This document shows, in pieces, positions 24,003-63,437 of a DNA stretch of 64,000 nt. A model generated the notes under the pieces. The model had not been told where the DNA came from, ran no database searches, and was given only the letters and a program-made list of their open reading frames with translations. Within the stretch, counting starts at the first letter, position 1. Every line of letters begins with the position of its first letter. The translations under genes and the position numbers were made by a program. Source of the DNA: a virus. The stretch is from the UHGV virus genome UHGV-0039337. One strand, given 5' to 3'.

Positions 24003-24587
24003 TTGGATATTTTGAATAATTATATAGAGCTTATGTATGGTTTTGAAGTAACAGATTTATATATTATAAATCAAATCACAAGAATTATAGGATACTTAAA
24101 AGATAATAGTTATAATGATGATGAAATAATGCATTATCTATTACATAACGGTCCTGTTATAAGAGAATCATTATTTAATACACTTACTGATTGTGTATTA
24201 TATTATAATAATGAATTAGTCGTAGAGTCTAAAGCTCCTACATGGCATCCAGAAAAAGAAGAGACCATTACTGAATATTATAGAGAACCTAGATGTAGAT
24301 TTACTATGAACGATCTATTAGATATGTATTATACTAAGTTAAAAGTTCCATATGAGTTACAAGATAGAAAAAGAGATGGTGGCGCTTTAACTCATTTACT
24401 TGACAAATATAAATTTAAGTATTTCACTTCATTAGATTTCATAGTGACTATGATAAAACTAGCTGAGGAGAATAATGAATCACCTAGTTCAGTATTTAAT
24501 ATAGAAAAGTATACAGATGAAGCATTTAATCTATTAAACACATTAGCGCAATATAACAAAATAAGTATAGTGTGGAGAAATAAATAA
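24003..24587 (+). CDS. Hypothetical protein (194 aa).
   Basis: TTG start. Sits upstream of the primase-polymerase gene. Confidence 0.5.
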   Translation: MDILNNYIELMYGFEVTDLYIINQITRIIGYLKDNSYNDDEIMHYLLHNGPVIRESLFNTLTDCVLYYNNELVVESKAPTWHPEKEETITEYYREPRCRFTMNDLLDMYYTKLKVPYELQDRKRDGGALTHLLDKYKFKYFTSLDFIVTMIKLAEENNESPSSVFNIEKYTDEAFNLLNTLAQYNKISIVWRNK

Positions 24588-25591
24588 TGGCGTGCAATAT
24601 AATAGAAGTTGGAGGAGTAATAAACAATAACTTTATACGTAATAGATATTGTTTAAAATCAGAATTAAATGAAAGAATAAAACAGTTTACTGGAGATAAA
24701 TATATGACAATATATAGCTATGACTCTAAAGATATTAATACTTGTAATTTTATAGCTCCCTTGTATCTAGATTTTGATATAGATAATCTAAAAGATAATT
24801 ATGATAAGTTAATAAGAGACTTAAAAATAATAGTATACAGATTGAAAACAGAATTACATTTAGAAAACAGAGATATAGAAATATATTTTAGTGGCGCTAA
24901 AGGATTTCATATATTAATAAATCATAAAGTATTTGGATTCAAACCTTCACGTACTATTAATAAAGATTTAAAAACTGTAGCTGTATATTTTAAAGCTTCT
25001 ACTTTTACTAAGTGTATAGACACAAGTATATATGATTATCGTAGACTTTTTAGAGTACCTAATACTATTAATAGTAAGACGGGATTATATAAAGTACCTA
25101 TATCATATAGCAGATTAATTAAAATGAGTTATTCAGAATTATTAAGCTATGCATCTAAGCCTCGTAAGATGATTAAAAAGCCTGTGATTTATAATCAAAA
25201 GGCACATGATGCATTCTATGAATTAATAAACAAGATACAAGAAAGAAAGAAGCAAACAGTTAATACAGCTGTAGCTAGAGAATATGTGAATAGTAAAAAG
25301 CTTCTACCTTGTGTAGAATATTTATTACAGAATGGAGCAGAAGAGGGCCAACGTAATAATTGTACCATAGCACTTGCTAGTGCATTATTTCAGATAGGGC
25401 ACTCTAAAGAAGAAGTTATAGAAATACTTGATACTTGGAATCAAACTAAAAATGATTCTCCTATTTCTGATAGAGAATTGTACACAACTGTTAATAGCGC
25501 ATATAATAATTCTAAAAATAATATTTATTATGGATGCAGTGCTTTTAGAGAATTAGGAGTATGTATAAAAGACTGTCCAATAAATAAATAG
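24587..25591 (+). CDS. Archaeo-eukaryotic-type primase-polymerase (PrimPol/AEP) with a C-terminal PriCT-like domain.
   Basis: AEP motif I YLDFDID, motif II SGAKGFHILI, motif III RLFRVPNTINSKTG. C-terminal LPCVEYLLQNGAEEGQRNNCTIALASALF resembles PriCT_1. Confidence 0.75.
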   Translation: MACNIIEVGGVINNNFIRNRYCLKSELNERIKQFTGDKYMTIYSYDSKDINTCNFIAPLYLDFDIDNLKDNYDKLIRDLKIIVYRLKTELHLENRDIEIYFSGAKGFHILINHKVFGFKPSRTINKDLKTVAVYFKASTFTKCIDTSIYDYRRLFRVPNTINSKTGLYKVPISYSRLIKMSYSELLSYASKPRKMIKKPVIYNQKAHDAFYELINKIQERKKQTVNTAVAREYVNSKKLLPCVEYLLQNGAEEGQRNNCTIALASALFQIGHSKEEVIEILDTWNQTKNDSPISDRELYTTVNSAYNNSKNNIYYGCSAFRELGVCIKDCPINK

Positions 25592-25605
25592 GGAGAGATG
25601 ATATA

Positions 25606-26706
25606 ATGAGAGAAGATATTAAAAAAATATTAATGGGGCCAAAGAATGTATCTACTACAAAAAAGGAAAATGTCAAGGAAGTATTAAAAGAATCTGATAC
25701 ATTAACAGTAGAAATACAAGACTATTATAACAACTTAGCTAATGATATAGATAATTTCGATAAGTTAGCGTGGGAATCTAAAACAGGATATGATACACCA
25801 CACTTTCCTAGTTTTACTAAAAATTTAGAAGGTTGGACTCCTGGGTTTTATACATTTGCAGGTGCCGCTAACGCAGGAAAAACAGCATTAATGCTTAATA
25901 TACTAGAAGATTTATGTACTACAGAATCTAATAAGCTATTCGGTATATTCTTTTCATTAGATGATAGCAAAAATAAAGTTATACCTAGAGTAGTAGCAAT
26001 GAGAGAAACTATTCCTATATCTGCTGTATCTAAACCAGCAAGATATAAAGCAATGATAGATAACGGTCATGAAGACACATTATTATTTAATGAATACTTA
26101 ACCAAACGTAAAGAAGGATTAAAGTCTCTTAAGGCAGATAGTAATAAAATGATTATATTCGATTCTACAGAAATTAAAACATATACTCAACTATATGATA
26201 CTATTAAGAATATATATATGTATGTTAAAGCACAAGACGAAGAGGCCAATATTGTAATAGCTATAGATAGCTTAAAAGATGTAGTACTTGACGATGTAAA
26301 ATTAGATATCTCAGAACGTATAGCAGAAGTAGCACGTAGAATAAAAGATATATCTATAGAATTTAATTGTATAATATTATCTTCAATGCATCTAAGAAAA
26401 CTTAACGCTACACGTAGGCCAACATTAGATGATTTAAGAGAATCAAATACTCTTGAGTACGAATTAGATGTATGTTTTCTAATATATAACGATGTATCTA
26501 AGAATAAACAAAATGCTAAGATATTCAGATATGAAGATGATACAGATACAGAGAAAAAGCCTATACTTGAAATAGATTGGGCTAAAAATAAAATAAGTTC
26601 ATACAAAGGCGTGTCATTCTGTAACTTTTCTCCTGAATATAATAAGTGCATAGAAGTAAATGATGCAGCAGCTGAACAATATACAATAAAATTGTACACA
26701 TTATAA
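25606..26706 (+). CDS. DnaB/RecA-like replicative helicase (P-loop).
   Basis: Walker A GAANAGKTALMLN. Walker-B-like IVIAIDSLKD (DnaB 'VIDYLQL'-type). Adjacent to the primase. Confidence 0.65.
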   Translation: MREDIKKILMGPKNVSTTKKENVKEVLKESDTLTVEIQDYYNNLANDIDNFDKLAWESKTGYDTPHFPSFTKNLEGWTPGFYTFAGAANAGKTALMLNILEDLCTTESNKLFGIFFSLDDSKNKVIPRVVAMRETIPISAVSKPARYKAMIDNGHEDTLLFNEYLTKRKEGLKSLKADSNKMIIFDSTEIKTYTQLYDTIKNIYMYVKAQDEEANIVIAIDSLKDVVLDDVKLDISERIAEVARRIKDISIEFNCIILSSMHLRKLNATRRPTLDDLRESNTLEYELDVCFLIYNDVSKNKQNAKIFRYEDDTDTEKKPILEIDWAKNKISSYKGVSFCNFSPEYNKCIEVNDAAAEQYTIKLYTL

Positions 26707-27478: not shown

Positions 27479-28378
27479 ATGTATAAATTCATTACTATAT
27501 TATTATCATTTATGCTAACATCATGTTTGTTTACTAATTCTTTTGCAGATTCTAGTATCATATATGATATACTTAATAAACCATATGAGCAATCAACTGG
27601 TGAAGATATAATATATAACATTATTGGTAAAAAAAAGACTAATAAAGAGATAAAAGTTAAAATCTTAAATGAAAATTCTATAAGTGATGAATTAGAAAGC
27701 GAAAATAAAAAACAAGAAAAAGATACTAAAATTAAGTTAAATATACCAAATAAAAAATCAGATAAAAATGCTTATATAAAAGGTTTAGATATTTCTAAAT
27801 GGAATGGCAATATAGATTGGAACGCTGTAGAAAGAGCAGATATTAAGTTTGTTATTATTAGAGCAGGATATGGTACACATATAGATTATAAATTTGAACA
27901 GAACATAAATAATGCTATTAAACATAATATGATAATTGGAGTTTATTGGTTTGGATACGCTTATACCAATGATATGGCTGTTGAAGAAGCAAAAATATGT
28001 GATAGAACTATTAGAAAATATAAAAAGCATATTATATTACCTGTTTTTTATGACTATGAATATGATAGTGTTAATTATGCTGCTAAAATGGGAGTAAGAG
28101 TTAACAAAAGAATGGTAAGTTCTTTCACTAATTACTTTTGTTCTTTTATTAAAAATAAAGGTTATGCTACAGGTATATATACTAATATAGATTATGCTAA
28201 TAGATATTTTTCACGTAGCATATTGAACAAATATCATACTTGGATAGCACAATGGGTAGGTTCTTGCTCATATAAATATAACTATATTGTTTGGCAATGT
28301 ACGGATAGTTATTATATAAGTAACAAAAAATATGACCTTGATTATTTTTATTACAATAGATATATAGGTGATAAATAA
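27479..28378 (+). CDS. GH25 family muramidase (lysozyme) with an N-terminal signal peptide and probable lipobox (LTSC).
   Basis: GLDISKWNGNIDWNAV, FVIIRAGYG and GVYWFGYAY are GH25 signatures. The N-terminus MYKFITILLSFMLTSCLF looks like a signal peptide. Confidence 0.8.
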   Translation: MYKFITILLSFMLTSCLFTNSFADSSIIYDILNKPYEQSTGEDIIYNIIGKKKTNKEIKVKILNENSISDELESENKKQEKDTKIKLNIPNKKSDKNAYIKGLDISKWNGNIDWNAVERADIKFVIIRAGYGTHIDYKFEQNINNAIKHNMIIGVYWFGYAYTNDMAVEEAKICDRTIRKYKKHIILPVFYDYEYDSVNYAAKMGVRVNKRMVSSFTNYFCSFIKNKGYATGIYTNIDYANRYFSRSILNKYHTWIAQWVGSCSYKYNYIVWQCTDSYYISNKKYDLDYFYYNRYIGDK

Positions 28379-29079
28379 TGAAACGTAAAATACTTATAAT
28401 ACTATTATCTATATACATGGTTCTATCATGTACAAGTAGTTCAACGGCATATCCCTTAACTTATTCTGGTAAACCTTTAATAGATAAATCACAAGCTGAA
28501 CAATATTTAAAAGATCGTCATGCAAGTAAAAAAATGTTAGATTGTTTAGATTTTATTTACGATTATGCAGAGAAAATTCGTTTAGATCCTTCTGAAGTAG
28601 TTGCTATGTCAGCTATAGAAACCGGATTTGGTAAATCTCATTTATTTGTGGTTTACAATAATCCGGGAGGGATAAAATCATCTCATACTAGCAATGGTTG
28701 GGCACATTACAAAACAGCTGAAGATGGTTATAAGGGAATGATAAATCTATTAGCAACATACGACGGTTTAATAAATAAAAAATCATATTTATATGATGTA
28801 TCCGAAACTACGGAAGGATTAGCTGGTATTTACTGGACTAATTATGGTAACGATGCAGGGTATCATAAACAATTATCAAAAGTTATAGAAACTATGCGTT
28901 CTTATCCTATTAAAAAACAAAATACTATTAAACCAAGCAAACCTAAAAAGCTTATAAAAAAATCTACTGAGAAACCTATTATAACTAAAAATCATACAGG
29001 TATAGATATTATCTACGATATCTTAAATAAAGATGATAATACTAGTGGTTTTGATTATATAATGAACTTTCTAAAATAA
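28378..29079 (+). CDS. Exported (lipoprotein-like) peptidoglycan hydrolase, probably a glucosaminidase-domain protein.
   Basis: Signal peptide MKRKILIILLSIYMVLSCTSS. SAIETGFGKS...NPGGIK...GWAHYKT...GYKGMINLL resembles the mannosyl-glycoprotein endo-beta-N-acetylglucosaminidase domain. Confidence 0.6.
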   Translation: MKRKILIILLSIYMVLSCTSSSTAYPLTYSGKPLIDKSQAEQYLKDRHASKKMLDCLDFIYDYAEKIRLDPSEVVAMSAIETGFGKSHLFVVYNNPGGIKSSHTSNGWAHYKTAEDGYKGMINLLATYDGLINKKSYLYDVSETTEGLAGIYWTNYGNDAGYHKQLSKVIETMRSYPIKKQNTIKPSKPKKLIKKSTEKPIITKNHTGIDIIYDILNKDDNTSGFDYIMNFLK

Positions 29080-29094
29080 GGTGGTGAAAATATC

Positions 29095-29310
29095 ATGAAA
29101 AGATTTAATCTAAAAGAACAAGTACATAATAAATTCTTCTGGATGTCAATAGTGTCATTAATAGTTTTAGTAGCACAACAATTTGGATTAGATTTTATTC
29201 CTGCAGATTTTCAAGTATTTGTTAATTCTGCATTAACTATATTAGTTAGTATGGGAATATTAAATGATAATACAACTCCTGGTATTGGTACAGAAGATAG
29301 AGATATATAA
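29095..29310 (+). CDS. Holin (71 aa, two TM segments).
   Basis: Small protein with two hydrophobic helices (FFWMSIVSLIVLVAQQF; ALTILVSMGIL), directly upstream of the endolysin. Confidence 0.6.
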   Translation: MKRFNLKEQVHNKFFWMSIVSLIVLVAQQFGLDFIPADFQVFVNSALTILVSMGILNDNTTPGIGTEDRDI

Positions 29311-29337
29311 TACAAATAAGAAAGGATGTGATGAATC

Positions 29338-30252
29338 ATGACTAGATTAGTAGCTATTGATGCAGGACACGGTATGAAAACTGAAGGTAAAAGAACACCT
29401 ATATTAAAAAAAGATTTAGTTATTAATGGTGAAGTCGTTAAGAGAAAAGGTGAAATCATACATGAACATGAATGGAATAGAGCAGTAGCTAAATATATAG
29501 CAGCAGGTTTAGCAAGAAATGGAATAAATTATATGTATACTGCAGACATGATAGGAAATAGAGATATTGCATTATCAACTAGAGCAAGAAAAGCTAATAT
29601 TAAAAGAGCTGATATATTAGTATCTTGTCATTATAATGCAATAGGTAGCTGTATTAATTTTCAAAATAGAATAAAAGGTCTGTTAGTATTAAGAACTAGA
29701 AACTGTTCACAAGAATCTATTAAATTAGGTAATTTGATTCATAAACATTTAAGAGCTGATTGCGATTATGAATATAGCTATGGTCTTATGAGAGATGTAG
29801 ATATGTGTGGATTTACATTAGCAATATTAAGACAAACTAATATGCCTTCAGTATTAGTAGAGTATGGCTTTATGGACTACGAAAAAGAAGCTGTAAAAAT
29901 GTTAGATCCTGTTTGGCAAAAACAATGTGCGGAAGCCACAGTAAAAGGAATATGCGAATATTTCGGAACGGAATACAAAGAAGATACTGCTAAGAAAGAT
30001 GAACATAAAAAAGACAATGTAGAACAAGATACTAGTTTTAAACCTTATATAGTTAAAATAGAAGAAGACATCTTAAATGTAAGAAAAGGCCCAGGCGCTG
30101 AATATAATAAAGTAACAACAGTTAAAAAAGGTGATTCTTATACAGTAATAGATGAAGCAAAAAGTAAAGACGGTGATATTTGGGGTCTTTTAAAAGCGTT
30201 TAAGAAAAAACGTGACGGTTGGATAAACTTAAAATATACTAAAAAGAAATAA
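29338..30252 (+). CDS. Endolysin: N-acetylmuramoyl-L-alanine amidase (Amidase_3) with a C-terminal SH3b cell-wall-binding domain.
   Basis: LVAIDAGHGMKTEGKRTP, VSCHYNA and VLVEYGFMD are Amidase_3 motifs. The C-terminal YIVKIEEDILNVRKGPGAEYNKVTTVKKGDSYTV...DIWG is SH3b-like. Confidence 0.85.
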   Translation: MTRLVAIDAGHGMKTEGKRTPILKKDLVINGEVVKRKGEIIHEHEWNRAVAKYIAAGLARNGINYMYTADMIGNRDIALSTRARKANIKRADILVSCHYNAIGSCINFQNRIKGLLVLRTRNCSQESIKLGNLIHKHLRADCDYEYSYGLMRDVDMCGFTLAILRQTNMPSVLVEYGFMDYEKEAVKMLDPVWQKQCAEATVKGICEYFGTEYKEDTAKKDEHKKDNVEQDTSFKPYIVKIEEDILNVRKGPGAEYNKVTTVKKGDSYTVIDEAKSKDGDIWGLLKAFKKKRDGWINLKYTKKK

Positions 30253-32995: not shown

Positions 32996-33757
32996 ATGCA
33001 AATAGAATATAAAGACTTGGAGTTATATAAAAAATGTCCAGTTAAGCATTACATGAAAACATGTGGTTATCATGTATCTCATAAATCATATAACGACTAT
33101 TTACACGATATGTATAATTTTCTATTAGCAGCTATGTTTTATCATGGTGAAGATGCCGTTGGAATTACAGAAAAATACTGGGAAGATGCATATAGAAAGA
33201 ATCAAGATATAATAACAGAAAAGCAATGGCTCAAAGGTGTAGGTTATATGTGTAATATCTATGATTACTTTTTATATTCTAATATGAAAATAGTAGCTGT
33301 TAATTATCCTTATTTAATAGAGTTTCCAGAATATAATGTAGCACTAACAGGTAATATACCAATGATTGCTAATGAAGGCAACGATAATCAATATATTATT
33401 ATTGATCCTTCTTTTAGTAATAAAATGAAAACGAATAAAGACCTGGATCATGACATTAAATACAGCGCTTACTCTAAAGCTATAAGAGATTTATATGATA
33501 GTACAGCTATTATTATTAATAGAAATTTTAATTTAGGACAGGAATGTCTACCTATTATGCGTAATGAAATGCATTACTCAAGATTAGGATTGATAGTAAA
33601 AAATACAATAGAAGCTATTAAAAATGAAATATATATACCTTGTGATGATTATACATGTAATTCATGTAAACTATGTGGTATATGTACATATTGGGGAACA
33701 AGCGCTTTTATTAATCGTAATAAAGTACAGGCCGAACATATTACAAAGAATAAATAA
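32996..33757 (+). CDS. Hypothetical protein with a C-terminal Cys cluster. Possibly a PD-(D/E)xK (Cas4/RecB-like) nuclease carrying an Fe-S cluster.
   Basis: C-terminus YIPCDDYTCNSCKLCGICTYWG. IIIDPSF and YSAYSKAIRDLY resemble nuclease motif II and the QxxxY motif. The match is weak. Confidence 0.45.
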   Translation: MQIEYKDLELYKKCPVKHYMKTCGYHVSHKSYNDYLHDMYNFLLAAMFYHGEDAVGITEKYWEDAYRKNQDIITEKQWLKGVGYMCNIYDYFLYSNMKIVAVNYPYLIEFPEYNVALTGNIPMIANEGNDNQYIIIDPSFSNKMKTNKDLDHDIKYSAYSKAIRDLYDSTAIIINRNFNLGQECLPIMRNEMHYSRLGLIVKNTIEAIKNEIYIPCDDYTCNSCKLCGICTYWGTSAFINRNKVQAEHITKNK

Positions 33758-33954: not shown

Positions 33955-34455
33955 ATGGCTAAGAAATATAAGAACAAGAAAAATAGTCGTGCTAGTATGG
34001 GTAAAATATTTCACAAGAAAACAACAATAGACGGGATAACTTTCGATAGTGAAACAGAAGCTAGATATTATGAATATATACGTGATAATAAAAAAGAACT
34101 GAATATAAAAGAGATAGAATTACAGCCACAATTTGTATTGCAAAATAAATATATACTTACTCCAAACGGTAGACGTATCGACTATAAAGATGATAAACAG
34201 TTTAGAATGGAGCAAAAGAAATATCCTAAATGTACGCATCAAGCTATAAAATATATAGCAGACTTTAAGATAACATATAATGATAACACTATAGATATTG
34301 TTGACGTTAAAGGAACAAAAACGCCAGATTTCAAAATAAAAGAAAAAATATTTAATTATGTGTATCCCGAATATCATAAGTTAAAATGTATAGCTTATTA
34401 TCGTGGCGAATGGTTATTATGGGATGACTATAAAAAGAAAAGTAAAAAGAAATAA
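33955..34455 (+). CDS. Basic hypothetical protein (166 aa).
   Basis: ORF with a GGAGTGGGGAGATAATTAT RBS. Confidence 0.45.
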   Translation: MAKKYKNKKNSRASMGKIFHKKTTIDGITFDSETEARYYEYIRDNKKELNIKEIELQPQFVLQNKYILTPNGRRIDYKDDKQFRMEQKKYPKCTHQAIKYIADFKITYNDNTIDIVDVKGTKTPDFKIKEKIFNYVYPEYHKLKCIAYYRGEWLLWDDYKKKSKKK

Positions 34456-40509: not shown

Positions 40510-40534
40510 AAGATAATTAAAAAAAAAGAAAAAG

Positions 40535-40564
40535 AAAAAATAACCCGGAAGGGTTATTTTTTTA
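40535..40564. terminator. Bidirectional rho-independent terminator between convergent genes.
   Basis: A-run, then TAACCC-ggaa-GGGTTA, then TTTTTTT. Confidence 0.75.
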
Positions 40565-40581: not shown

Positions 40582-40887
40582 TTATAAAGTATATATTAAC
40601 TCAATAATAGATGCTTTAGTTTCATCATCATATTTAGATCTTTTTATCACTTCAACTAAATCTTCTACTGGACTTATTTGCCATAAGTTATCATCAGACA
40701 TTACACTATATGTATTATCTTCGAATAATGCTTGTAATGTATATATACCTAATTCCTTATTTGATTCTGTGCGTACTGGCTTTATATCTATTATCTTACA
40801 TAATCTACTTTTATTAAAATTTGCCTTATCTATAGAATTCTCTAATTGTCCTATATGCAAATAAACTTTATCATTAATATTTAGCAT
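40582..40887 (-). CDS. Hypothetical protein (101 aa).
   Basis: ORF with a GGTGGT SD-like sequence upstream. Confidence 0.45.
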   Translation of the reverse strand: MLNINDKVYLHIGQLENSIDKANFNKSRLCKIIDIKPVRTESNKELGIYTLQALFEDNTYSVMSDDNLWQISPVEDLVEVIKRSKYDDETKASIIELIYTL

Positions 40888-40946: not shown

Positions 40947-40951
40947 TTATA

Positions 40952-41485: not shown

Positions 41486-41524
41486 ATAAAATTAGAAAGA
41501 GAAAATATAAGAGCTTTTTGCTCT
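41486..41524 (-). terminator. Rho-independent terminator for the leftward operon, downstream of the giant hydrolase gene.
   Basis: On the minus strand: AGAGC-aaaaa-GCTCT followed by UAUAUUUUCUCUUUCU. Confidence 0.6.
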
Positions 41525-54420: not shown

Positions 54421-56313
54421 TTACGCTCCTATACTATTTATTATTATTTTATTATCATCTGTAAACTTTCCTTTAAAGTTTATAGTTTTGTCTTTTTTTA
54501 AATTACTTTTATATTTATCTAGATTGAATAATAAAGCTTCATAATTACCTTCTTTAGTATCTAATGATATAAAAGCATATCTCTTTCCTGATTTAGCTTT
54601 ACGTTTAGTCACTTTTGTTATAATAGCTTGGCCACTTACATAAATATCATTATATTTAAGGTCTTCCAGATTACAACACTTATTATGAATATAATTAGCT
54701 TGACATAAAATTAATTCTATCTCATCTTCTGATGCATATAGTTCCAGGTTAGTATCTTTATTAATGAATATAGAGTATTTAGGTGGATCTGGATGTTTTT
54801 TCTTGGCTGAAAGATAATATAATTCTTCATATAATTCTATAACATTAGAGCCAAATGCTCCTATTGCTATCATGCTATTTAATGCTTTTGTATTACATAT
54901 ACTTTTATTTACATGTTTATATATATGAGCCACTAAAGAATCATCTTTATTTTCTTTTTCTTTATTTAGCCAATAAGTAGCAGCATTATAAGCGTTCTCA
55001 GATACATTTGCAAGGCAGCAGAAGCCGAGTCTAATCCCCTCTGTTTCTACTGTACATTTGTATTTTGATTTAGTTATATCAAGAGGTAGAAATTTAATAC
55101 CTACTTTCATACATTCATTTTGTATTGTTTTAAATTTAGCTTTACGTTCATCAGTTTTACCTGATTTATTATTATACATACAAGTTAAAGTTGCCGCATA
55201 AAATTCTTTAGGATAGTAAATTTTATAATATGCTGTTTCATAACAAGTTAAAGCATAAGCTACAGCATGAGATTTGTTGAAACTATATTTCCCTGAATCT
55301 AATATTAATTGAAATATTTTTTCAAATATATCATCAGTCATAATATTTTTACTTAACTCTTTTAATTCTGCTTTATATGAAGCTATTTTATCAAATTTTT
55401 TTTTGCTAGATGATTTCATAAGCGAATATGCTTCATGCAATGGCAATCCCATATTTGCACAACATTGCATTAATTCTTCTTGATAAATCATAACTCCATT
55501 AGTTGTCTTAGTAGCTTTATCATAAGCTGGATGTATATATTCTATATTTTCTTTGCCTTCTTGTATTTTCATATAATGTTCATCGAGCCCTGATTGAATA
55601 CAAGGGCCACGGACAAGAGCAAGACAATCAGCAAGTTGTTCTATATTACGTGGGTTTAATCTTCTCATGCGTTGTTTGTAAGTATTACTGCCTATTTGAA
55701 ATAGCCCTGTAGTATTACGAGAACAGATTAAATCCCATACTTTTTTATCATTTAATGGATCAAATTCTATATCTATTTTATGACCTGTAAGTTTTTCACA
55801 TTCGCTTAATATACATAAAGTATTTAATCCTAAATAATCATATTTTACTAAGGCCTGACTTTCTGCATCATGTAAATCAAGGGCTGTAGCATTTAATTCT
55901 TTTTTGTCTTGTCTAACCATTGGTGCTACATCAGATACTTTAGATTTAACTATTAATGTACCTGCTGCATGTATAGAAGTATGACATGGTAAACCTTCAA
56001 GCTTCATAGCCATTTCAAATACTTCTGGATATATTTCTTGCCACTCTCTAAGTTCTGGTACTATCTCTAATGATTCTTCTATTGATAAATCGCTTTGCTT
56101 TTCTGTGCCATCTTCAGATTCTTCATATACACATTGAGGTATTAGTTTAGCTATTTTATCTTCGGTCTTTAAGTCTATATTATATAATTTGCATACGCTT
56201 CTTATTGATGATCTTGCTTTACGTATACTAAAAGTAGATACAGCTGCACAATGATCAAGTCCATAAGTATCTAAAGTATACTTAAACATAATATCTCTAT
56301 AGTCACTAGGCAC
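54421..56313 (-). CDS. C-terminal portion (630 aa) of a second DnaE-like DNA polymerase III alpha. Continues from 56327..57577 after a +1 frame change.
   Basis: Begins within PDIDIDVPSDYRD (the canonical DnaE 'PDFDVDF'). Contains the GLPCHTSIHAAGTLIV catalytic motif. The frame is open upstream to 56355. Confidence 0.7.
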   Translation of the reverse strand: MPSDYRDIMFKYTLDTYGLDHCAAVSTFSIRKARSSIRSVCKLYNIDLKTEDKIAKLIPQCVYEESEDGTEKQSDLSIEESLEIVPELREWQEIYPEVFEMAMKLEGLPCHTSIHAAGTLIVKSKVSDVAPMVRQDKKELNATALDLHDAESQALVKYDYLGLNTLCILSECEKLTGHKIDIEFDPLNDKKVWDLICSRNTTGLFQIGSNTYKQRMRRLNPRNIEQLADCLALVRGPCIQSGLDEHYMKIQEGKENIEYIHPAYDKATKTTNGVMIYQEELMQCCANMGLPLHEAYSLMKSSSKKKFDKIASYKAELKELSKNIMTDDIFEKIFQLILDSGKYSFNKSHAVAYALTCYETAYYKIYYPKEFYAATLTCMYNNKSGKTDERKAKFKTIQNECMKVGIKFLPLDITKSKYKCTVETEGIRLGFCCLANVSENAYNAATYWLNKEKENKDDSLVAHIYKHVNKSICNTKALNSMIAIGAFGSNVIELYEELYYLSAKKKHPDPPKYSIFINKDTNLELYASEDEIELILCQANYIHNKCCNLEDLKYNDIYVSGQAIITKVTKRKAKSGKRYAFISLDTKEGNYEALLFNLDKYKSNLKKDKTINFKGKFTDDNKIIINSIGA

Positions 56314-56326
56314 ATCTATATCTATG

Positions 56327-57577
56327 TCAGGGTATTGTGCCCTTGCGGTGTATACTTAAAAATCTATCAAACATAAGATTATATTTAATAGAATCTACTT
56401 TGGTTATTTGAAGTAAATAAGCAACAATAGATCCGCATACGCTGCCTCTTCCAGGGCCCATTTTTGCTCCAATCTTATTCATATATTGTATTAGATCTCT
56501 TGTTATTAAAAAATAAGAACTAAATCCTAAATCATCTATAACTTTAAGCTCTTCATACATTCTATCAACGTATTGTGCTGGATTTTTAATTTTATATTGT
56601 ATTTGATCTAATCTTTCTAAACATAATTTTTCTATATAAGTTTTAGGAATATAACCTGTAGGACATTCAAATTCTGGAAGGTTTAACTCTTCTTGGTTGA
56701 AATCATATGATTCAACTTTATTAGATAAGTCCATAGTATTGTCTAATGCTTGATTAATTATATCTGCATTATACAATTCACTATTAAAAGAATTAAAGAT
56801 TTCATCTCTAGACATCATATAATATATTTTATCTGCATATATACTTTCATCTTCATTTTCTGGTGCTTTTAAATTACGCGTAATTCTTATATGAAAATCA
56901 TGAGTTTTCCAATCTTCCTTATTTATATAATGCACATCATTAGTAGCAATGAGTTTAATGTTTTTCTCTTCTGCTATATTAATCATTGCATTATTAACTT
57001 TAATTTGTTCATCAAAATTACCTGGTTGAATTTCTAAATATAAGTCATCTCTGAACATATTATATAATTCTTCAATATGATTAATAGCTTGTTCATTTTC
57101 ATTGTTTATAATAAGTTGAGGGGCATATCCTCCTACACAAGCTGTAGTACAGATAAGCCCCTCAGTATAGTCTTTTATATGTTCTAAATCTATACGTGGT
57201 TTATAATAATAATATTCAACAGATGCATCTGATACTATTTTCAATAAGTTAGATATGCCTGTTTTATTTTTAGCTATTAATACCATATGATATAACTTTT
57301 TATGTTCACTGTCTTTAATAGTACAGTCTTCACATAAATATATTTCACAGCCTATAAGTGGTTTAATATTATTGTTTATACACTCATAATAGAATCCATA
57401 CATATTACTTAAAGATCCGTGATCTGTTATAGCTATGGATTTCATATTAAGTTTTTTAGCTTTAGCAATTATATCTTTATTTGTAGCGATGGAATCTCCT
57501 ACCGATCCTTTTGTAGTATGCAAATGAGTTATGCAATAATTATTATAATAAGAAGTCATCGTTATCATCTTCTTCAT
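56327..57577 (-). CDS. N-terminal portion (416 aa) of the second DnaE-like polymerase (PHP domain). Ends at a UGA inside the conserved RFLxxxR motif.
   Basis: ITHLHTTKGSVGD...ITDHGSL is the PHP motif. MGPGRGSVCGSIVAYLL...MFDRFLSIHRKGTIP is followed by a stop. Confidence 0.7.
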   Translation of the reverse strand: MKKMITMTSYYNNYCITHLHTTKGSVGDSIATNKDIIAKAKKLNMKSIAITDHGSLSNMYGFYYECINNNIKPLIGCEIYLCEDCTIKDSEHKKLYHMVLIAKNKTGISNLLKIVSDASVEYYYYKPRIDLEHIKDYTEGLICTTACVGGYAPQLIINNENEQAINHIEELYNMFRDDLYLEIQPGNFDEQIKVNNAMINIAEEKNIKLIATNDVHYINKEDWKTHDFHIRITRNLKAPENEDESIYADKIYYMMSRDEIFNSFNSELYNADIINQALDNTMDLSNKVESYDFNQEELNLPEFECPTGYIPKTYIEKLCLERLDQIQYKIKNPAQYVDRMYEELKVIDDLGFSSYFLITRDLIQYMNKIGAKMGPGRGSVCGSIVAYLLQITKVDSIKYNLMFDRFLSIHRKGTIP

Positions 57578-57857: not shown

Positions 57858-58253
57858 TTATTCCTTTCTATATTCTTTACATTCTTGATTATTATATTCT
57901 AATATTTCTCTTAATATTGATCTATGACATATAATATCATTTTTTTCATAACAGATAAGGAATATAGTATATCCTTCATTATTTAAATCTATTATTTCTT
58001 TTAATCCATCAATGAAAAATGGATTGTCAAATGACTCATCTATATATTTTTGTCTATACTCTTTCCAATCAATACTACCATCTTTATACTTGGCTAATGT
58101 AAGTTCCGTGGGCGCAAGTTGAGGCGCCCACTCTATATTATATTTTTTTACGTTTATAGTATTTCTAGGTTTCCATCTAGTTATTAAAAATTTCTTAGTT
58201 GTATCATCATTTGGTAGATTTTTTAAGTTAGACAAATAAGTTGTGTATATCAT
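57858..58253 (-). CDS. DUF488-like protein (131 aa).
   Basis: RWKPRN...WAPQLAPTELTL...W.EYRQKYIDE resembles the DUF488 (YeaO-like) signature RxWPRG...WxxxLAPSxxL. Confidence 0.5.
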   Translation of the reverse strand: MIYTTYLSNLKNLPNDDTTKKFLITRWKPRNTINVKKYNIEWAPQLAPTELTLAKYKDGSIDWKEYRQKYIDESFDNPFFIDGLKEIIDLNNEGYTIFLICYEKNDIICHRSILREILEYNNQECKEYRKE

Positions 58254-58549
58254 TAATGACAGCCACCATTACAAACTCCATTACAATCTCTACTACATGT
58301 ATGTGCTTTTGATTCATTTAAGTTATGAGAAAACTTTTCTTTTCTTGAATCATACTTTTCTTGCATCATACTTCCAGTAGAACCATAACCATCTGCACCT
58401 CTTGTAGTTTCATCTAATTCATCTACTATAAAAGGTTGTGCTTCAAGTACTGGACATAATACTAATTGCGCAATTTTAGCATATTTCTTTAATACAAATG
58501 GTTCTGTTCCTATATTTTCTAGTTCAATACCTATTTCTCCTCTATATTT
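58253..58549 (-). CDS. dut: dUTPase exon 2 (motifs III-V) with an unusual Cys-rich C-terminal extension of about 40 aa.
   Basis: KYRGEIGIELENIGTEPF...IAQLV...RGADGYGSTG. The tail is CSRDCNGVCNGGCH. Confidence 0.75.
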   Translation of the reverse strand, partial: KYRGEIGIELENIGTEPFVLKKYAKIAQLVLCPVLEAQPFIVDELDETTRGADGYGSTGSMMQEKYDSRKEKFSHNLNESKAHTCSRDCNGVCNGGCH

Positions 58550-59401
58550 CAATTTGTTATGTATAGGCTCTTTATCCTATACTCTCCTACTTTCGTAGAA
58601 GTATCGGACTATATCATTAACTCTCATATAGAGAGCAGAGCGGGGCGCTCGTGTCGGTTTTATTGTTTACCTTACTCAACCGTTAGTCTCTGAACCTTCC
58701 GTATACTTTATAGGCTTCTACGGCTTGGCTGCTGATTAGCATATCTTTCGACTTAGCCTTCCAGCAATTCACCCCGTTTAAAGACTCCAAATTTATTTTG
58801 CTTTATTATATTTTCCTAAAATGTCATGTAATTTGGAATGCTTTGATCTTGATAATATAATTAAATTAGTAGGATCATTATTTATTTTATTTTCATCTAT
58901 ATGATGTACATCATAATTTGGATTTAAATACCATTTGCCATCTATTAATACTGCACAAGATTCAGTAAGTAAATACTGTTCTGCAATTAGCCTATGCTCT
59001 CTAATTCTTCCGAATTTATTTGCAAAAGGATGATCGGGAACATAAACATATATGTAATCATTATACAGTATTTTATTTTGAGTAAAACTAGCATTCAATG
59101 GACCTTTTAATCCATATTGATGATTTCCTTCTCCTTTCATATAATTACTTTTATTGATAATATTACACTCTTCTGAACAAGTTATCATATCTGGATGTTT
59201 TAGTCTTTTAAGTCTTGAAGGTTTAACATAAAATTTTGTGCCGCATATACAACATGAAACATTTGGTTTTTTATTCCATTTATTATACATGTCAGCACAC
59301 GCATGACTACAAACATTTTTTCTATGCTTTTTTATATTATCTGTTTCGTATTCTTCATTACAATAATCGCAATGTCTTAACAATTAAGCGACATCTCCCT
59401 T
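58550..59401 (-). mobile_element. Group I self-splicing intron (IA-type core, 852 nt) inserted in dut between the codons for ...GTIDS and KYRGEI. Carries an HNH homing-endonuclease ORF.
   Basis: Conserved core elements on the minus strand: P AAUUGCUGGAAGG (58757-58769), Q AAUCAGCAGCC (58727-58737), R GUUCAGAGACUA (58684-58695), S GAUAUAGUCC (58606-58615). The 5' exon ends in U (..GACUCU) and the intron ends in G (..AAUUG). Confidence 0.8.
58793..59383 (-). CDS. Intron-encoded HNH homing endonuclease (196 aa).
   Basis: N-terminal Cys-rich Zn-binding region. C-terminal HNH motif VHHIDENKINNDPTNLIILSRSKHSKLH. TTG start 18 nt after the 5' splice site. Confidence 0.8.
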   Translation of the reverse strand: MLRHCDYCNEEYETDNIKKHRKNVCSHACADMYNKWNKKPNVSCCICGTKFYVKPSRLKRLKHPDMITCSEECNIINKSNYMKGEGNHQYGLKGPLNASFTQNKILYNDYIYVYVPDHPFANKFGRIREHRLIAEQYLLTESCAVLIDGKWYLNPNYDVHHIDENKINNDPTNLIILSRSKHSKLHDILGKYNKAK

Positions 59402-59740
59402 AGAGTCTATAGTACCTGGAGCATTAGGTATTCTTATTTTAGTTTTTAAACCATTACCACTTGTAGGTCTAGCTTGCAATTCTGTGCCTAATGGTATAGA
59501 TGATGCCCAACCAGTGCATGCTAATACTGTTTCTCCTGGCATTATTATCCATGAGGAAACTCCTTTTGCAAAATCTTTATTATCCTCATATGGTTTTTTG
59601 TCTTCATTGAGTCTTTTTAATGCTATTGCAAACACATCCATTCCGCTATCTCCTGGATGTGCATATTTTAATTCTATAGCATCTTCTCTTAATCTTTTTA
59701 CTTTAATAGGCACTTGCGTATAAAAATTCAGTTTAATCAC
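59402..59740 (-). CDS. dut: dUTPase exon 1 (motifs I-III, N-terminal part).
   Basis: LKYAHPGDSGMDVFA (motif I-like) and ARPTSGNGLKTKIRIPNAPGTIDS (motifs II/III). The apparent ORF reads through into the intron for 5 codons before its stop. Confidence 0.75.
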
Positions 59741-59743: not shown

Positions 59744-60283
59744 TTATTTTTTTAATTTTTTACTAACTAAATAGTCTATATATTCTATACCGAAGTTATC
59801 AAACTTACGGCATTTGTCAATTAATTCATTATAGGTCATCCACTTAGCATTCTTAGGTGCATCATATATTTCTTTAATTTTAGCACGATATACTATAGCT
59901 ATATCGTCTGGATTATTTTTTATAGTTTTAATAAATCCAAAATCTTTAACAGTTTTGAGGTCTTTTACTCCACACCTATTAGCATTATATGCTACTATAG
60001 ATTTGATAGGTTCATAATAAAAGATACTTTCTTTAATATAAGCTAAACCATTTCCATTAAATGAGTAACAACCATTACTCATTTTAAATACTAAGTAATG
60101 GTTGTTACTTTCTATTATTAGATATGGTATTATTCTATAGAATAATTTACAGTCATAAGTTACATTTCTATATAGCATATAATTATTATACTTAAGCCAT
60201 AAATTAGACTCGTCTATAGTTAATCCATTATCAAAAGATAGTTTGTATTTTGGTATAACTAATATTTCATTATTCGTCTTCAT
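59744..60283 (-). CDS. Hypothetical protein (179 aa).
   Basis: ORF with a 14-nt overlap with the upstream gene. Confidence 0.45.
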   Translation of the reverse strand: MKTNNEILVIPKYKLSFDNGLTIDESNLWLKYNNYMLYRNVTYDCKLFYRIIPYLIIESNNHYLVFKMSNGCYSFNGNGLAYIKESIFYYEPIKSIVAYNANRCGVKDLKTVKDFGFIKTIKNNPDDIAIVYRAKIKEIYDAPKNAKWMTYNELIDKCRKFDNFGIEYIDYLVSKKLKK

Positions 60284-60557
60284 TATTTAATCCATCTTTT
60301 AAAGTTTTAGAAGCTTTAAATGTGGCTCTTTTTTTAGAAGGTATCATTATTTTTTCTTGTGGATTTCTAGGGTTTCTCCCAACTCTTTCAGCTGCTACTT
60401 TAGTTTCAAATGTACCGAAATTTACTAACGATACTTTTTCTCCTGCTTTTAATTCATCTGTTATAGTATCTAATACTGTATTAACTACTAATGTAACATC
60501 ATCCACTGTTTTGTTTGTTTTTTTAGAAACTTTACTTATTAATTCAGACTTATTCAT
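60270..60557 (-). CDS. hup: HU/IHF-family histone-like DNA-binding protein (comparable to SPO1 TF1).
   Basis: MNKSELISKVSKKTNKTVDDVTLVVNTVLDTITDELKAGEKVSLVNFGTFETKVAAERVGRNPRNPQEKIMIPSKKRATFKASKTLKDGL matches the HU consensus throughout. Confidence 0.8.
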   Translation of the reverse strand: MNKSELISKVSKKTNKTVDDVTLVVNTVLDTITDELKAGEKVSLVNFGTFETKVAAERVGRNPRNPQEKIMIPSKKRATFKASKTLKDGLNNEDE

Positions 60558-60960: not shown

Positions 60961-60964
60961 TTCT

Positions 60965-61774
60965 TTACTCTTGTAACATTTTCTTTAATCTTAACAATGA
61001 TTCATCTATTTCATCTATTGTACCAAATTCGGCTTCTAGCATATCTATTAATTGTGGTGATTTATAAGTTATAACTATTAGTAGATGTTGTAAGTTACTT
61101 TTTCCCCTTGATAACTTATACATGTCTACTATATCACCTACAATATCTTCTGCTATATCTATACCTACAAGTATTAATGCATGAGTTTTTGGTATATATT
61201 TATTTTCTTTAAGTGCTTCTTCATCAAATATACTATTTAATATATTTGTCCATGTATTTTTAGGTACTTTAGAATTATAATGAGGAACTGTTGGCTGTAC
61301 TTTTCCAACACATTCAGTATTTTCAAGATCTTTATGGATGAGCACTTTATCTCCTGTTATATTTTCTGTATATGGAATTATTTTATTGCATTTAGTACAG
61401 AATAGTTCATGTCTATCTCCTTTAAGTTGTATATACTGTATATCTTTTGATATCTTATCTTTTAAGTAACCATCAAAGTTAGCATCTATTACCGTATTTA
61501 CAATTCCTAGATTTAATAGTTCCAATAGGGCTTTTTGCTCTTTTGTTCCTGTTGTATTACGTTCATTTTCTGCTATATTTGTTTTATATAATGCCCAATA
61601 TTCTTTAGGCTTTTTTACCATATTTTTTCTTGAATATACTTGTTCATTAAATTCTGTAGCATGAAATAAATGAGCTTCACGTACAATATCATTACCTACT
61701 ATTACCACTGCATCTTTATACTGTAATAAATTATTTTTCATGCTTTCTAATGCTTTACTTTTATCTACTGCCAT
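60965..61774 (-). CDS. Hypothetical protein (269 aa). A weak Rossmann/SIR2-like resemblance was not accepted.
   Basis: ORF. Confidence 0.45.
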   Translation of the reverse strand: MAVDKSKALESMKNNLLQYKDAVVIVGNDIVREAHLFHATEFNEQVYSRKNMVKKPKEYWALYKTNIAENERNTTGTKEQKALLELLNLGIVNTVIDANFDGYLKDKISKDIQYIQLKGDRHELFCTKCNKIIPYTENITGDKVLIHKDLENTECVGKVQPTVPHYNSKVPKNTWTNILNSIFDEEALKENKYIPKTHALILVGIDIAEDIVGDIVDMYKLSRGKSNLQHLLIVITYKSPQLIDMLEAEFGTIDEIDESLLRLKKMLQE

Positions 61775-62236
61775 TTAATTATCATCTCCTTCATCCATTT
61801 CAAGTTCTGAAGTTAATAATTCTAATAATGTTGTATTGTCTGGTTTTTCTGCTATTTCTGCAGCATATAATTTTTCGTAACATTTACTACAATAATGTTT
61901 ATCTATTTCTAATGCTCCTTCTTTATTTAAGTCGGTATCACCATAATAAGCACAACTATCACATACAGAAGTTCCACATTTATTGCACTTATAAATTTCG
62001 CCATAAGTATTTGCACCACAAGTTGGGCATGTTTTAAGTTCTGGTGGATCATAACCATTATTTTTTTCCTCCCTTGGTATATTCTCCATCTTTTTTGTTA
62101 CTAATTTTAATGGCATTATATTATCATTATTATTTTTAATAGGATTAACTATGGCAGAATTAGTATTGTCTCTTACTATAGTTTTTTTTGCTTTTGTTTC
62201 ATCGACTTCTTTTAATGTACAACTATAAAATATCAA
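61775..62236 (-). CDS. Zinc-ribbon protein (153 aa).
   Basis: CPTCG...CNKCG...CDSC...CSKC. Confidence 0.45.
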   Translation of the reverse strand: MIFYSCTLKEVDETKAKKTIVRDNTNSAIVNPIKNNNDNIMPLKLVTKKMENIPREEKNNGYDPPELKTCPTCGANTYGEIYKCNKCGTSVCDSCAYYGDTDLNKEGALEIDKHYCSKCYEKLYAAEIAEKPDNTTLLELLTSELEMDEGDDN

Positions 62237-62309
62237 CTCTGGATTTTTACATATATATTCGTAGTGTTTGCATACTACTTTATGTTTACAATCTGAACAA
62301 AATATACTA

Positions 62310-63437
62310 TCACATCCTTATCTCTTCTCTAATAAATGATTCTATATTTTTTCTTTCTTGTTTTGGAACAAGCTGTAATATATCATCTATTTCTGGACGA
62401 TATCTAGCTTTTAATAAATATAGTTCGTTTAAATAATTAAGTATTATATCTTTAGCTTTCATATATCCATAAGTTATAATCCCTGAGTATATAATATCTT
62501 TTGTTTTAAATCTTTTTTCTAATGCAAAATCAGCAAGGTCATATCCACTAGGTAAAATATATATAAGTGGATATTGTCCTTTGCTGTATATTAAATCAGC
62601 TGCAGATCTTATAGATTTTTGCCCTTTTTCATCATTATCATATAATAATACAGGAATCAATCCTAGTTTATTTATTATCTCATAATGATGTTCTGAAAAA
62701 GAACAACCTAAAGTACATACTACATTATTTAATCCATATTTAGTAGCTAATATTACATCCATTACTCCTTCTGTTATAAATACATATTTTAGAGTTTTAT
62801 CTATATTGTTTATATTATATAAATATGATGATTTATTAAATACAGTATTATTAGAAGAGTGGATATATTTTTTATCTTTTACATTATCTATTCTTCTTTT
62901 ATTGAAGCCTACTATGTTGTTATACATATCATATAATGGAAACGTCAATCTATTTTCTATTATATCATAGCCTAATTCAAATTTAGCTATATCATAACTA
63001 TCTAATCCTCTTTTAAAACAATATTGTTTAACGTTAGTATCTAAATCACGTACATATTTTTCATTTAACTTTTTATTTCTATAATATATCTTTATATTTT
63101 TGTCTTTAGGAAGAGGTAGATTAATTCTTTTAGCTAAATATTCTAAAGATTGTACCCACGTTAGTTTACCTTGATTTATCCATTGAATAAAGGCTATGCA
63201 ATCACTACCATAATTATTGTTTATACCTTTTCTATCGCAATGACATCCAAAACAACACCAGCTATTAGTTTTACTATTAATAGTAAATGATGCTGTACTA
63301 TCATCATGATTCGGATTAGGACATTTACCTGTCCATATATAACGTCCAGCTTTTTTAAGTTCTGTATATTCGCTTGCTAATTCAACTAAATCTGTAGATT
63401 CTTTTACTTTATCTATAAAGTCACGCTGATATTTCAT
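62310..63437 (-). CDS. dnaG: DnaG-type primase (CHC2 zinc finger plus TOPRIM).
   Basis: CPNPNHDDSTASFTINSKTNSWCCFGCH is the CHC2 finger. TOPRIM: VFITEGVMDVILA...LLYDNDEKGQKS. Confidence 0.75.
   Translation of the reverse strand: MKYQRDFIDKVKESTDLVELASEYTELKKAGRYIWTGKCPNPNHDDSTASFTINSKTNSWCCFGCHCDRKGINNNYGSDCIAFIQWINQGKLTWVQSLEYLAKRINLPLPKDKNIKIYYRNKKLNEKYVRDLDTNVKQYCFKRGLDSYDIAKFELGYDIIENRLTFPLYDMYNNIVGFNKRRIDNVKDKKYIHSSNNTVFNKSSYLYNINNIDKTLKYVFITEGVMDVILATKYGLNNVVCTLGCSFSEHHYEIINKLGLIPVLLYDNDEKGQKSIRSAADLIYSKGQYPLIYILPSGYDLADFALEKRFKTKDIIYSGIITYGYMKAKDIILNYLNELYLLKARYRPEIDDILQLVPKQERKNIESFIREEIRM

Follow-up and report, generated by a model that had tools for sequence, protein, structure and literature searches.

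In this study, we analyzed a DNA stretch of 64,000 nucleotides from the virus genome UHGV-0039337 (hereafter the window), which carries two genes for DNA polymerase III alpha subunits, here called DnaE1 and DnaE2, together with two primases of unrelated types and a DnaB-like helicase. Coding is on the plus strand up to position 40,509 and on the minus strand from position 40,582 on. The plus-strand arm contains a primase of the archaeo-eukaryotic primase (AEP) type, the DnaB-like helicase, a RecJ-like phosphoesterase and an uninterrupted DnaE1 gene; the minus-strand arm contains a DnaG-type primase, an HU-like protein, a dUTPase and DnaE2. GC content of the window is ~28% (0.26-0.34 on both arms), and no tRNA genes were found in it.

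The window is identical to part of the ENA metagenome scaffold ERZ28615758 MERR22-1 scaffold_15 (271,414 bp), on which the exact DnaE1, DnaE2 N-terminal and DnaG proteins are all present and whose DnaE2 region is identical to that of the window. The exact DnaE1 protein was found on 4 contigs and the exact 410-aa N-terminal part of DnaE2 on 15, which come from at least six different samples. Samples that carry the phage include ERZ28615758 and SRR31227640. Nucleotide comparison (blastn) of DnaE1 with 50,697 deposited phage genomes gave zero matches, and a scan of GTDB genomes with DnaE1 retrieved only bacterial DnaEs, which were ~30-35% identical apart from a single 59-residue fragment at 54%. 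Because neither a DNA-level phage relative nor a close GTDB relative was found, we regard the element as an uncultured jumbo phage (~271 kb).

Replication genes on the two strands

The original prediction had listed four replication proteins for each strand. On the plus strand, all of them were confirmed by Pfam or PHROG matches. The AEP-type primase (24587-25591, 334 aa) has a PriCT-1 C-terminal domain (Pfam PriCT_1, 1.1e-9) and matches phrog_16345 'primase' (3.3e-46); its score against Pfam DNA_primase_S (26.5 bits) was marginally under the cut-off of 26.8, and catalytic motifs I (DxD) and II (SxH) are present as DFDID at residue 62 and SGAKGFH at residue 102. It is followed by the DnaB-like helicase (25606-26706, 366 aa; Pfam DnaB_C, 3.1e-20), the only DnaB-type helicase in or beside the window. 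Further downstream lie the RecJ-like DHH phosphoesterase (35439-37139, 566 aa; Pfam DHH 1.3e-21, DHHA1 2.4e-8, and RecJ_OB 3.5e-5, below the cut-off) and DnaE1 (37198-40509, 1103 aa), an uninterrupted DnaE-type alpha subunit with its Pfam domains in DnaE order (PHP 3.8e-45, DNA_pol3_alpha 2e-67, DNA_pol3_finger 9.4e-41, HHH_6 2.1e-14) and an intact catalytic aspartate triad (PDIDSD at residue 454 and KIDMLG at residue 612). Full-length homologues of DnaE1 were found from 95% down to 46% identity, on contigs of up to 287 kb.

On the minus strand, the four predicted proteins (DnaG, HU, dUTPase and a second DnaE) were all present, but two of the genes are not simple open reading frames (ORFs): DnaE2 lies in two frames and the dUTPase gene is split by an intron. 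The features that define a DnaG-type primase (CHC2 zinc ribbon, catalytic core and Toprim) were all found in the product of 62310-63437 (375 aa; Pfam Zn_ribbon_DnaG 3.9e-16, DNAG_N 7.6e-14, Toprim_2 7.4e-12).

Comparison of the two DnaE polymerases

DnaE1 and DnaE2 are 29% identical over ~1,080 residues (E = 2e-113), which is considerably more than the 'only motif-level similarity' that had been reported for them. In phmmer searches of the PDB, DnaE1 matched 5lew at 3.6e-134 and the PolC structure 3f2b at 6e-26, and DnaE2 matched 2hpi at 3.6e-123. In general, both proteins matched DnaE structures (5lew, 2hpi, 2hnh) at 1e-100 to 1e-134, whereas their matches to PolC (3f2b, 9qpc) were at about 1e-26 to 1e-33, with the best stretch covering the first ~400-435 residues. 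On these comparisons, both are DnaE-type polymerases, and neither is of the PolC type.

The PHP domain of DnaE1 contains nine putative metal ligands (H10, H12, D19, H44, E69, H129, C180, D247 and H249), which align with the Mycobacterium tuberculosis motifs HNH, MLDG, TDHG, GVEAY, THL, TTGC and NDCHY (residues were assigned by reading the alignment), and all nine are invariant in DnaE2. In the M. tuberculosis DnaE1, the nine ligands form a proofreading zinc center, which is described along with residues D23, E73 and D226, and five of these nine ligands have been lost in the alpha subunit of E. coli polymerase III (PMC5636811). Since the complete set is intact in both window enzymes, both are predicted to have built-in proofreading.

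A profile search over 1.84 billion representative proteins was used to collect 150 diverse DnaEs, and distance-based neighbor-joining trees of 152-164 DnaE sequences were built with 40-60 bootstrap replicates. The DnaE1 family was monophyletic in 60/60 replicates and lay inside a 17-tip clade (60/60) of proteins of 1116-1224 aa; the DnaE2 family was likewise monophyletic (60/60), inside a 20-tip clade (60/60) of proteins of 910-1093 aa. The two families were never sisters (0/60), and the split of each clade from all other sequences had 40/40 support. E. coli DnaE, eight DnaEs from bacterial metagenome-assembled genomes and the DnaEs of Moorella, Bacillus and Geobacillus phages were outside both clades, in positions between the two families. 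The nearest relatives were all metagenomic proteins. These fully supported, separate clades bear out the claim that a single phage carries two DnaEs of different lineages, and the coexistence of two unrelated primase types was confirmed as well. The claim that the pair is not a recent duplication also agrees with the 29% identity and with the families never being sisters, and a recent duplication is excluded.

The possession of two polymerase III alpha homologues had been called unusual for one phage, and this was also found to be the case. Deposited phage records with DnaE matches numbered 1,446, with 1,456 matched places in total, so that more than one match per record is rare. Full-text searches of the literature found no paper describing a phage with two DnaEs.

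The shifty stop in DnaE2

DnaE2 is encoded in two frames of the minus strand. The frame-0 part (56330-57577, or 56327-57577 with the stop; 416 aa from the first ATG) comprises the PHP domain (2.8e-41) and the N-terminal portion of the palm (DNA_pol3_alpha profile positions 2-99), and ends with ...RKGTIP, the last codon being CCC, followed by TGA. The +1-frame part (54421-56328, 635 aa) begins with DIDID... and contains the rest of the palm (profile positions 110-260), the fingers, the helix-hairpin-helix region (HHH_6) and an OB fold (tRNA_anti-codon, below the cut-off). The downstream ORF itself spans 54421-56313 (630 aa) and is 13 nt from the frame-0 ORF. Judged by homology, DnaE2 probably starts at 57559, which would give 410 instead of 416 residues for the first part; an exact look-up of the 416-aa version gave no match, and the version from Met7 (410 aa) did match.

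The junction reads ACA ATA CCC TGA CAT AGA TAT AGA TGT G and contains CCC_TGA_C (56332-56326), a +1 frameshift site of the 'shifty stop' kind. A +1 slip at this heptamer yields ...GTIP-DIDIDV..., which rebuilds the catalytic PDxDxD motif. The domain set of DnaE2 is complete, yet it forms a single polypeptide (1051 or 1045 aa) only with the frameshift, and its catalytic triad then consists of PDIDID at residue 416 (P from frame 0, DIDID from the +1 frame) and KYDYLG at residue 578, which holds the third aspartate. Thus, full-length DnaE2 of this lineage would be obtainable only by +1 frameshifting. Gene callers split DnaE2 into two fragments, the second of which starts past the catalytic aspartates, and in the same way the dUTPase is called as a truncated ORF.

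The site is well conserved. An identical junction was present at six loci from six samples, with 0-57 substitutions and no insertions or deletions over the 3,139-nt gene relative to the window, and the site recurred in four further lineages: as CCC_TGA_C in L002, L003 and L086 (84%, 75% and 46% amino acid identity, respectively; all GTA CCC TGA CAT AGA T) and as CCT_TGA_C in L008 (53%; TTA CCT TGA CAT AGA T). All five lineages retain the D-x-D-x-D codons in the +1 frame, while codons around the site vary synonymously. Both parts of the gene are under purifying selection. Relative to L002, the ratio of nonsynonymous to synonymous substitution rates (omega) was 0.12 upstream of the site and 0.18 downstream (synonymous divergence, dS, ~0.9), and variant codons in five further strains were all synonymous upstream (17, against 0 nonsynonymous) and mostly so downstream (39 against 8), with no internal stops. 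CCC accounts for 17/639 Pro codons and TGA for 3/49 stops in the window, both being rare, and CCCTGAC occurs a single time over the two strands of the window together.

No ATG, GTG or TTG was found upstream of the DxDxD codons in the +1 frame in the window or in L008, and therefore a separately initiated C-terminal fragment would lack two catalytic aspartates. L002 and L003 do have an ATG in the +1 frame, 7 codons upstream of the stop.

Several trivial causes for the frame change were also considered. Reassignment of TGA as a sense codon was rejected, because the ORFs do not share a frame and frame 0 has a TAG six codons further on. Transcriptional slippage is unlikely with a C run of just 3 nt. 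Sequencing error was rejected because the site is present on 15 contigs and in four other lineages, with an identical junction in six independent assemblies.

CCC_UGA is known as an especially +1 shift-prone shifty stop, used in Listeria phage tail genes and in antizyme; its basal +1 shifting in E. coli is usually <= ~2% and depends on context, reaching up to 15-60%, and changing CCC_UGA to CCU_UGA costs about two-thirds of the shift activity (PMC3082878). A literature search found no paper on a programmed frameshift in a bacteriophage DNA polymerase III alpha subunit. A protein-pattern scan of IMG/VR with the DnaE2 N-terminal part gave one distant locus only, and a scan of the same database for the frameshift pattern CCYTGACATAGAYNTNGAY gave 73 loci, none in a DnaE context, and is uninformative on how widely the site is spread there. 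To our knowledge, no other replicative polymerase has its catalytic motif read across a +1 frameshift, though the literature was not searched for one by name.

States of the catalytic motif among DnaE2 homologues

Homologues of DnaE2 were found in three states at the PDxDxD codons. An uninterrupted member of 1031 aa (P0241) is present in L087 with the same gene order, and its site reads ATC CCT GAC ATA GAC. Other members bear an insert: L004 has an HNH ORF after ...IPD (11195-12030 of that locus), and L010 and L011 have a LAGLIDADG ORF after ...IPDVD (7240-8143 of L010). By analogy with the dUTPase intron of the window, these inserts are presumably introns. DnaE2 of the window has no insert at the motif, and its 1-nt frame change is 4 nt upstream of the position of the HNH insert in L004. 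Among 63 homologues that reach the motif, 33 read through, whereas an insert-like end within a few codons was seen in 25 and a frameshift-like end directly behind the Pro in 5. When the N-terminal parts were placed in a neighbor-joining tree, the frameshift state fell in three separate places: the window clade, P0013 alone, and P0045 (L086), which has an unusually long branch and is nested among uninterrupted and insert-bearing close relatives.

It is conceivable, albeit at low probability, that the frameshift is a recurrently evolved and selected state, in which a 1-nt insertion in the Pro codon destroys the endonuclease target and survives by creating CCC_UGA_C, the slip rate then setting the amount of the second polymerase. 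In any case, the three states of these codons within one gene family (frameshift, insert and no interruption) represent a natural experiment on how essential genes deal with recoding and selfish elements.

Many DnaE2 homologues end near residue 565 (KYDFLG motif) or near residue 715, which hints at further insertion sites or at contig ends.

Conservation of the two modules

Gene order around both polymerases was compared with related loci. The order DnaE1, 101-aa ORF, 2613-aa ORF and SNF2 gene (the last three on the minus strand) is reproduced on the 271,414-bp scaffold. The relative L007 has, on the plus strand, the set of DUF1064, sigma-like, RecJ and DnaE1 genes, with RecJ adjoining DnaE1 as in the window and with the AEP primase and DnaB nearby; the pairing of the AEP primase with DnaB is kept in this relative and also in Moorella phage MTATph1. 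On the minus strand, L004, L008 and L087 share the order Gam, DnaG, SIR2, (ribonucleotide reductase), dUTPase, DnaE2, DUF6094, SNF2 and giant lysin, so that the DnaE2-DUF6094-SNF2 synteny is kept in all three. Finally, a DnaE1 homologue (P0222, 47% identity) and a homologue of the DnaE2 N-terminal part (P0010, 52%) both list the same longest contig, of 276,294 bp. The two modules are conserved together in relatives, as one system, and the presence of both genes on that single contig contradicts the recent mosaic acquisition that had been suggested.

The earlier description of 'two complete toolkits' was overstated. There is one replicative helicase: no second one was found on the minus-strand side, including 10 kb past the window end. 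Besides, the modules are co-conserved, and the interval given for the toolkits (24587-63437) also holds a lysis cassette and a 2613-aa lysin.

Proposed roles of the two polymerases and alternative explanations

Cells with two C-family polymerases, such as the PolC and DnaE of Firmicutes, divide the work between them at the fork. We consider it reasonably probable that the genes described here form one distributed replication system, with an anciently diverged DnaE pair, one DnaB-like helicase, and AEP and DnaG primases, in which DnaE1 is the bulk enzyme and DnaE2 a low-copy one made through the slip. At the heptamer, with the weak stop signal UGA-C in the A site, peptidyl-tRNA-Pro would move from CCC onto CCU, and the next codon read would be GAC; the trans-frame DnaE2 peptide across the slip would contain ...RKGTIPDIDIDVPSDYR.... 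Most ribosomes should terminate at UGA, and therefore DnaE2 would be made in small amounts. There may thus be a division of labor in which DnaE1 acts as the bulk replicase with the DnaB helicase, and DnaE2, by analogy with the PolC and DnaE of Firmicutes, would be a low-copy partner that extends DnaG primers or serves an early or repair phase. A possible role of the AEP primase is in initiation, and that of DnaG in priming of the lagging strand. The partial match of the plus-strand module to the single-DnaE phage MTATph1 points to an older core module that includes DnaE1 and to a second one, centered on DnaG and nucleotide supply, that includes DnaE2. If a virus family stably keeps two deeply diverged DnaEs and two primase types, it would be an independent and compact example of fork division, and it should be tractable, as DnaE1 and DnaE2 could be expressed separately.

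Several observations weigh against this model of one system with a bulk and a low-copy polymerase. Deep nodes of the neighbor-joining trees had bootstrap values <30%, and with such a backbone an ancient duplication and two acquisitions are not separable. The basal shifting of <= ~2% measured in E. coli (PMC3082878) might be too low for a replicative role, and the CCU_UGA of L008 re-pairs poorly in the +1 frame. No stimulatory RNA structure common to the lineages was found downstream of the site (fold z-scores -1.5 to +1.4). A Shine-Dalgarno-like GGGGG 3 nt upstream, at the spacing of prfB, is present in L008 only; the other lineages have AAGG-type sequences 6-8 nt upstream, which are encoded by conserved K-G codons. 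The GTDB scan with DnaE1 gave neither a prophage copy nor a clue to the host. The gene survey took in ~84 kb of the 271-kb genome, and a clamp, clamp loader, single-stranded DNA-binding protein or further helicases elsewhere in it may change the picture. Moreover, neither window enzyme is PolC-like, and therefore the analogy with Firmicutes is functional only.

Four other explanations were weighed. The original prediction had itself raised the possibility of a chimeric assembly with a junction at ~40.5 kb, which may be extended to a recent mosaic of two phages, each giving its own replication module. Strand and GC skew do switch at ~40.5-41.5 kb, and the part from 41 to 49 kb has a slightly raised GC content (0.33); yet transcription from the two sides converges at this switch, where there is a terminator-like hairpin, and GC is alike on both arms. 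Furthermore, the junction and gene order recur on the 271,414-bp scaffold carrying all three exact proteins, the exact DnaE1 and DnaE2 N-terminal proteins occur on 4 and 15 contigs, respectively, and in a relative of ~50% identity a single 276-kb contig carries both modules, so that we attach almost no probability to a chimera. That DnaE2 is a decaying pseudogene, the frameshift being an inactivating mutation and the phage running on DnaE1 alone, might be suspected from a frame broken exactly at the catalytic motif, from the two ORFs given by gene callers (the second beginning past the catalytic aspartates) and from the long branch of P0045 (L086). Selection speaks otherwise: omega is 0.12 and 0.18 in the two parts, strain variants are 56 synonymous against 8 nonsynonymous, and six strains show no additional stops or indels. 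In addition, the shift-prone heptamer is kept down to 46% identity while neighboring codons change synonymously, and the +1 frame retains the DxDxD codons. Given purifying selection and intact catalytic residues, neither DnaE appears to be dead, and decay of DnaE2 is very improbable.

DnaE2 could also be a split, two-subunit enzyme that works without a frameshift, or a PHP fragment acting on its own, for example as a trans-acting proofreader. Two intact ORFs 13 nt apart would fit this, as would the +1-frame ATG of L002 and L003, and insert-bearing relatives would yield the same N-terminal fragment if the insert stays in the mRNA. Nevertheless, in the window and L008 no +1 start precedes the DxDxD codons, yet these codons are conserved; an uninterrupted 1031-aa member exists; and the break, judged by the structures of E. 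coli and Taq polymerase III alpha, falls in mid-palm rather than at a domain boundary. We therefore consider a split enzyme unlikely. Unlikely, too, is a role as a damage-tolerance or mutagenic polymerase like the bacterial DnaE2/ImuC, outside the replisome. It would suit a second C-family enzyme of presumably low expression, with repair-linked neighbors such as Mu Gam, SNF2 helicases and, just past the window, a UvrD-type helicase. On the other hand, the nine intact PHP ligands predict proofreading, and a proofreading PHP domain is unexpected in an error-prone polymerase; no imuA- or imuB-like partners were seen, and DnaE2 adjoins DnaG and genes of nucleotide supply (dUTPase and, in relatives, ribonucleotide reductase).

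Relationship to known systems

With regard to the proposed system of two DnaEs, the closest functional parallel appears to be the Firmicute fork, where two C-family polymerases also work with a DnaG primase and a DnaB-type helicase. The DnaE of B. subtilis elongates primers made by DnaG and operates beside PolC (PMC5737612), which makes it a functional parallel for the role proposed for DnaE2 (PMC5737612 and PMC3814617). In contrast with that system, the window pair is viral, and both members are DnaE-type with complete PHP metal sites.

Among large Firmicute phages, Moorella phage MTATph1 is similar in having a primase, DnaB, ..., resolvase, regulator and nuclease-like gene, and then DnaE at a convergent junction; its gene directly before DnaE is annotated 'CRISPR/Cas system associated protein'. 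A PD-(D/E)XK nuclease gene adjoins DnaE in Bacillus phage Blastoid (Andromedavirus type) and Geobacillus phage GBK1. The DnaEs of these Moorella, Bacillus and Geobacillus phages are 30-34% identical to each window DnaE. However, among the top matches each record of these phages (MTATph1, Blastoid and GBK1) contained a single DnaE match, whereas the window has a second, separately conserved DnaE by its DnaG module.

The recoding site resembles known shifty stops (CUU_UGA_C of prfB, and CCC_UGA of Listeria phage and antizyme) in having a re-pairable P-site codon, UGA and then C, in being conserved and in giving access to an essential +1 domain. It differs from them in lying in the catalytic motif of a DNA polymerase, with no evident autoregulatory logic and with a prfB-spaced Shine-Dalgarno-like sequence in one lineage. 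In dnaX of bacterial polymerase III, a -1 shift on A_AAA_AAG produces tau and gamma, and the short product is functional. Recoding in a replisome gene that sets the ratio of short to long product would be common to both cases, whereas the shift in DnaE2 is +1 and its short product ends in mid-palm and is probably not functional.

Group I introns with homing endonucleases occur in phage genes of DNA metabolism, such as the DNA polymerase of SPO1/SP82 and T4 td and nrdB. The dUTPase group I intron of the window with its HNH ORF, and the DnaE2 homologues with HNH or LAGLIDADG ORFs at catalytic codons, are similar to these cases, unlike DnaE2 of the window itself, which has no insert at that site. 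In general, the parts are all of known kinds (C-family polymerases, AEP and DnaG primases, shifty stops and homing introns), and it is their combination and the position of the recoding site that are new.

Other genes and features of the window

The split dUTPase gene consists of exon 1 (59402-59740, minus strand), ending in ...APGTIDS, an 852-nt group I intron (58550-59401) and exon 2 (58253-58549), starting with KYRGEIGIE.... Exon 1 alone has no Pfam match, and the joined exons (GTIDS/KYRGEIGI) match PF00692 at 7e-16; homologues in L002 and L003 are annotated as dUTPase. Judged from the sequence, the boundaries would have U at the end of exon 1 and G at the end of the intron. Rfam RF00028 was detected at 58584-58830 (80.8 bits, gathering cut-off 50; E = 9e-21) once a 951-nt region was searched with laxer filters; the whole-window search at the gathering threshold had returned nothing. 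The intron contains an HNH homing-endonuclease ORF (58793-59383; Pfam HNH_3, 1.6e-6).

Also on the minus strand, DnaG is adjoined by a Mu Gam-like DNA-end-binding protein (63437-63985; Pfam Phage_Mu_Gam, 3.7e-25), as in L004. Within the DnaG-DnaE2 module are the HU/IHF-type DNA-binding protein (60270-60557, 95 aa; Pfam Bac_DNA_binding 9.2e-28, PHROG 379 3e-28), a SIR2-family gene (60965-61774), a DUF488 gene of the 'active N3a' subclade (57858-58253) and a FYVE/C1-like zinc-finger gene (61775-62236); SIR2 and DUF488 are found at the relatives' loci too. Downstream of DnaE2 there are a DUF6094 methyltransferase-like gene (52952-54415) and an SNF2-family helicase (49897-52935, 1012 aa; Pfam SNF2-rel_dom and Helicase_C), which always follows DnaE2 and the DUF6094 gene. 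These are followed by the giant multi-lysin protein (41574-49415, 2613 aa), with a C39-like peptidase, phage tail lysozyme/SLT, two M23, GDSL-lipase-like and SH3 domains, and the relatives have such a protein (1792 to >2050 aa) downstream of their DnaE2-SNF2 block as well. In L008, a serine resolvase and an IS605 OrfB/TnpB-type gene (Cas12f1-like_TNB) are inserted between DUF488 and DnaE2 (3396-5115 of that locus).

The strand and GC-skew switch at ~40.5-41.5 kb represents a convergent transcription boundary. A terminator-like hairpin with a 12-13-pair stem and T runs on each strand (40534-40563, both strands) lies between the 3' ends of DnaE1 and the minus-strand 101-aa ORF (40582-40887), and a stretch of ~690 nt without ORFs (40888-41573) separates the latter from the giant lysin gene. 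Scans of the 40.5-41.6 kb convergent gap for Rfam families, repeats and tandem repeats gave terminator-like hairpins only, with no RNA family and no iterons.

On the plus strand, a lysis cassette (27479-30252) lies between DnaB and the DnaE1 block and encodes a GH25 muramidase, a glucosaminidase, a 71-aa holin (its counterpart in L006 matches Phage_holin_1) and an amidase with SH3. Further along lie a gene whose product weakly matches PD-(D/E)XK nucleases and has Cys residues clustered at its C terminus (32996-33757; Pfam PDDEXK_1 0.0021, below the cut-off), a DUF1064 protein (33955-34455; Pfam DUF1064, 3e-28) and a sigma-factor-like protein (34464-35381, 305 aa; PHROG 351 'RNA polymerase sigma factor', 2.1e-5). 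The DUF1064 gene adjoins the sigma-like gene also in L007, where the homologue of the latter has a faint Sigma70_r4_2 match. The sigma-like gene is located just upstream of RecJ-DnaE1, and its product may time the expression of the DnaE1 block.

The 10 kb past the window end encode two helicases, one of UvrD type and one further SNF2 helicase, and also contain a LAGLIDADG ORF and fragments of an AAA ATPase. The latter (AAA, AAA_lid_3; 1-2392 and 4588-5394 of L122, the 10 kb past position 64000) are split by a 278-aa ORF, with the free-standing LAGLIDADG ORF nearby, and may represent another gene split by a mobile element. At the other end of the window, the plus strand of 1-24000 encodes very large structural-looking proteins (920-1451 aa) with common repeated modules and Pro/Asp/Lys-rich linkers, such as KPDPDPKPDPDP, which are probably tail-fiber or baseplate paralogues.

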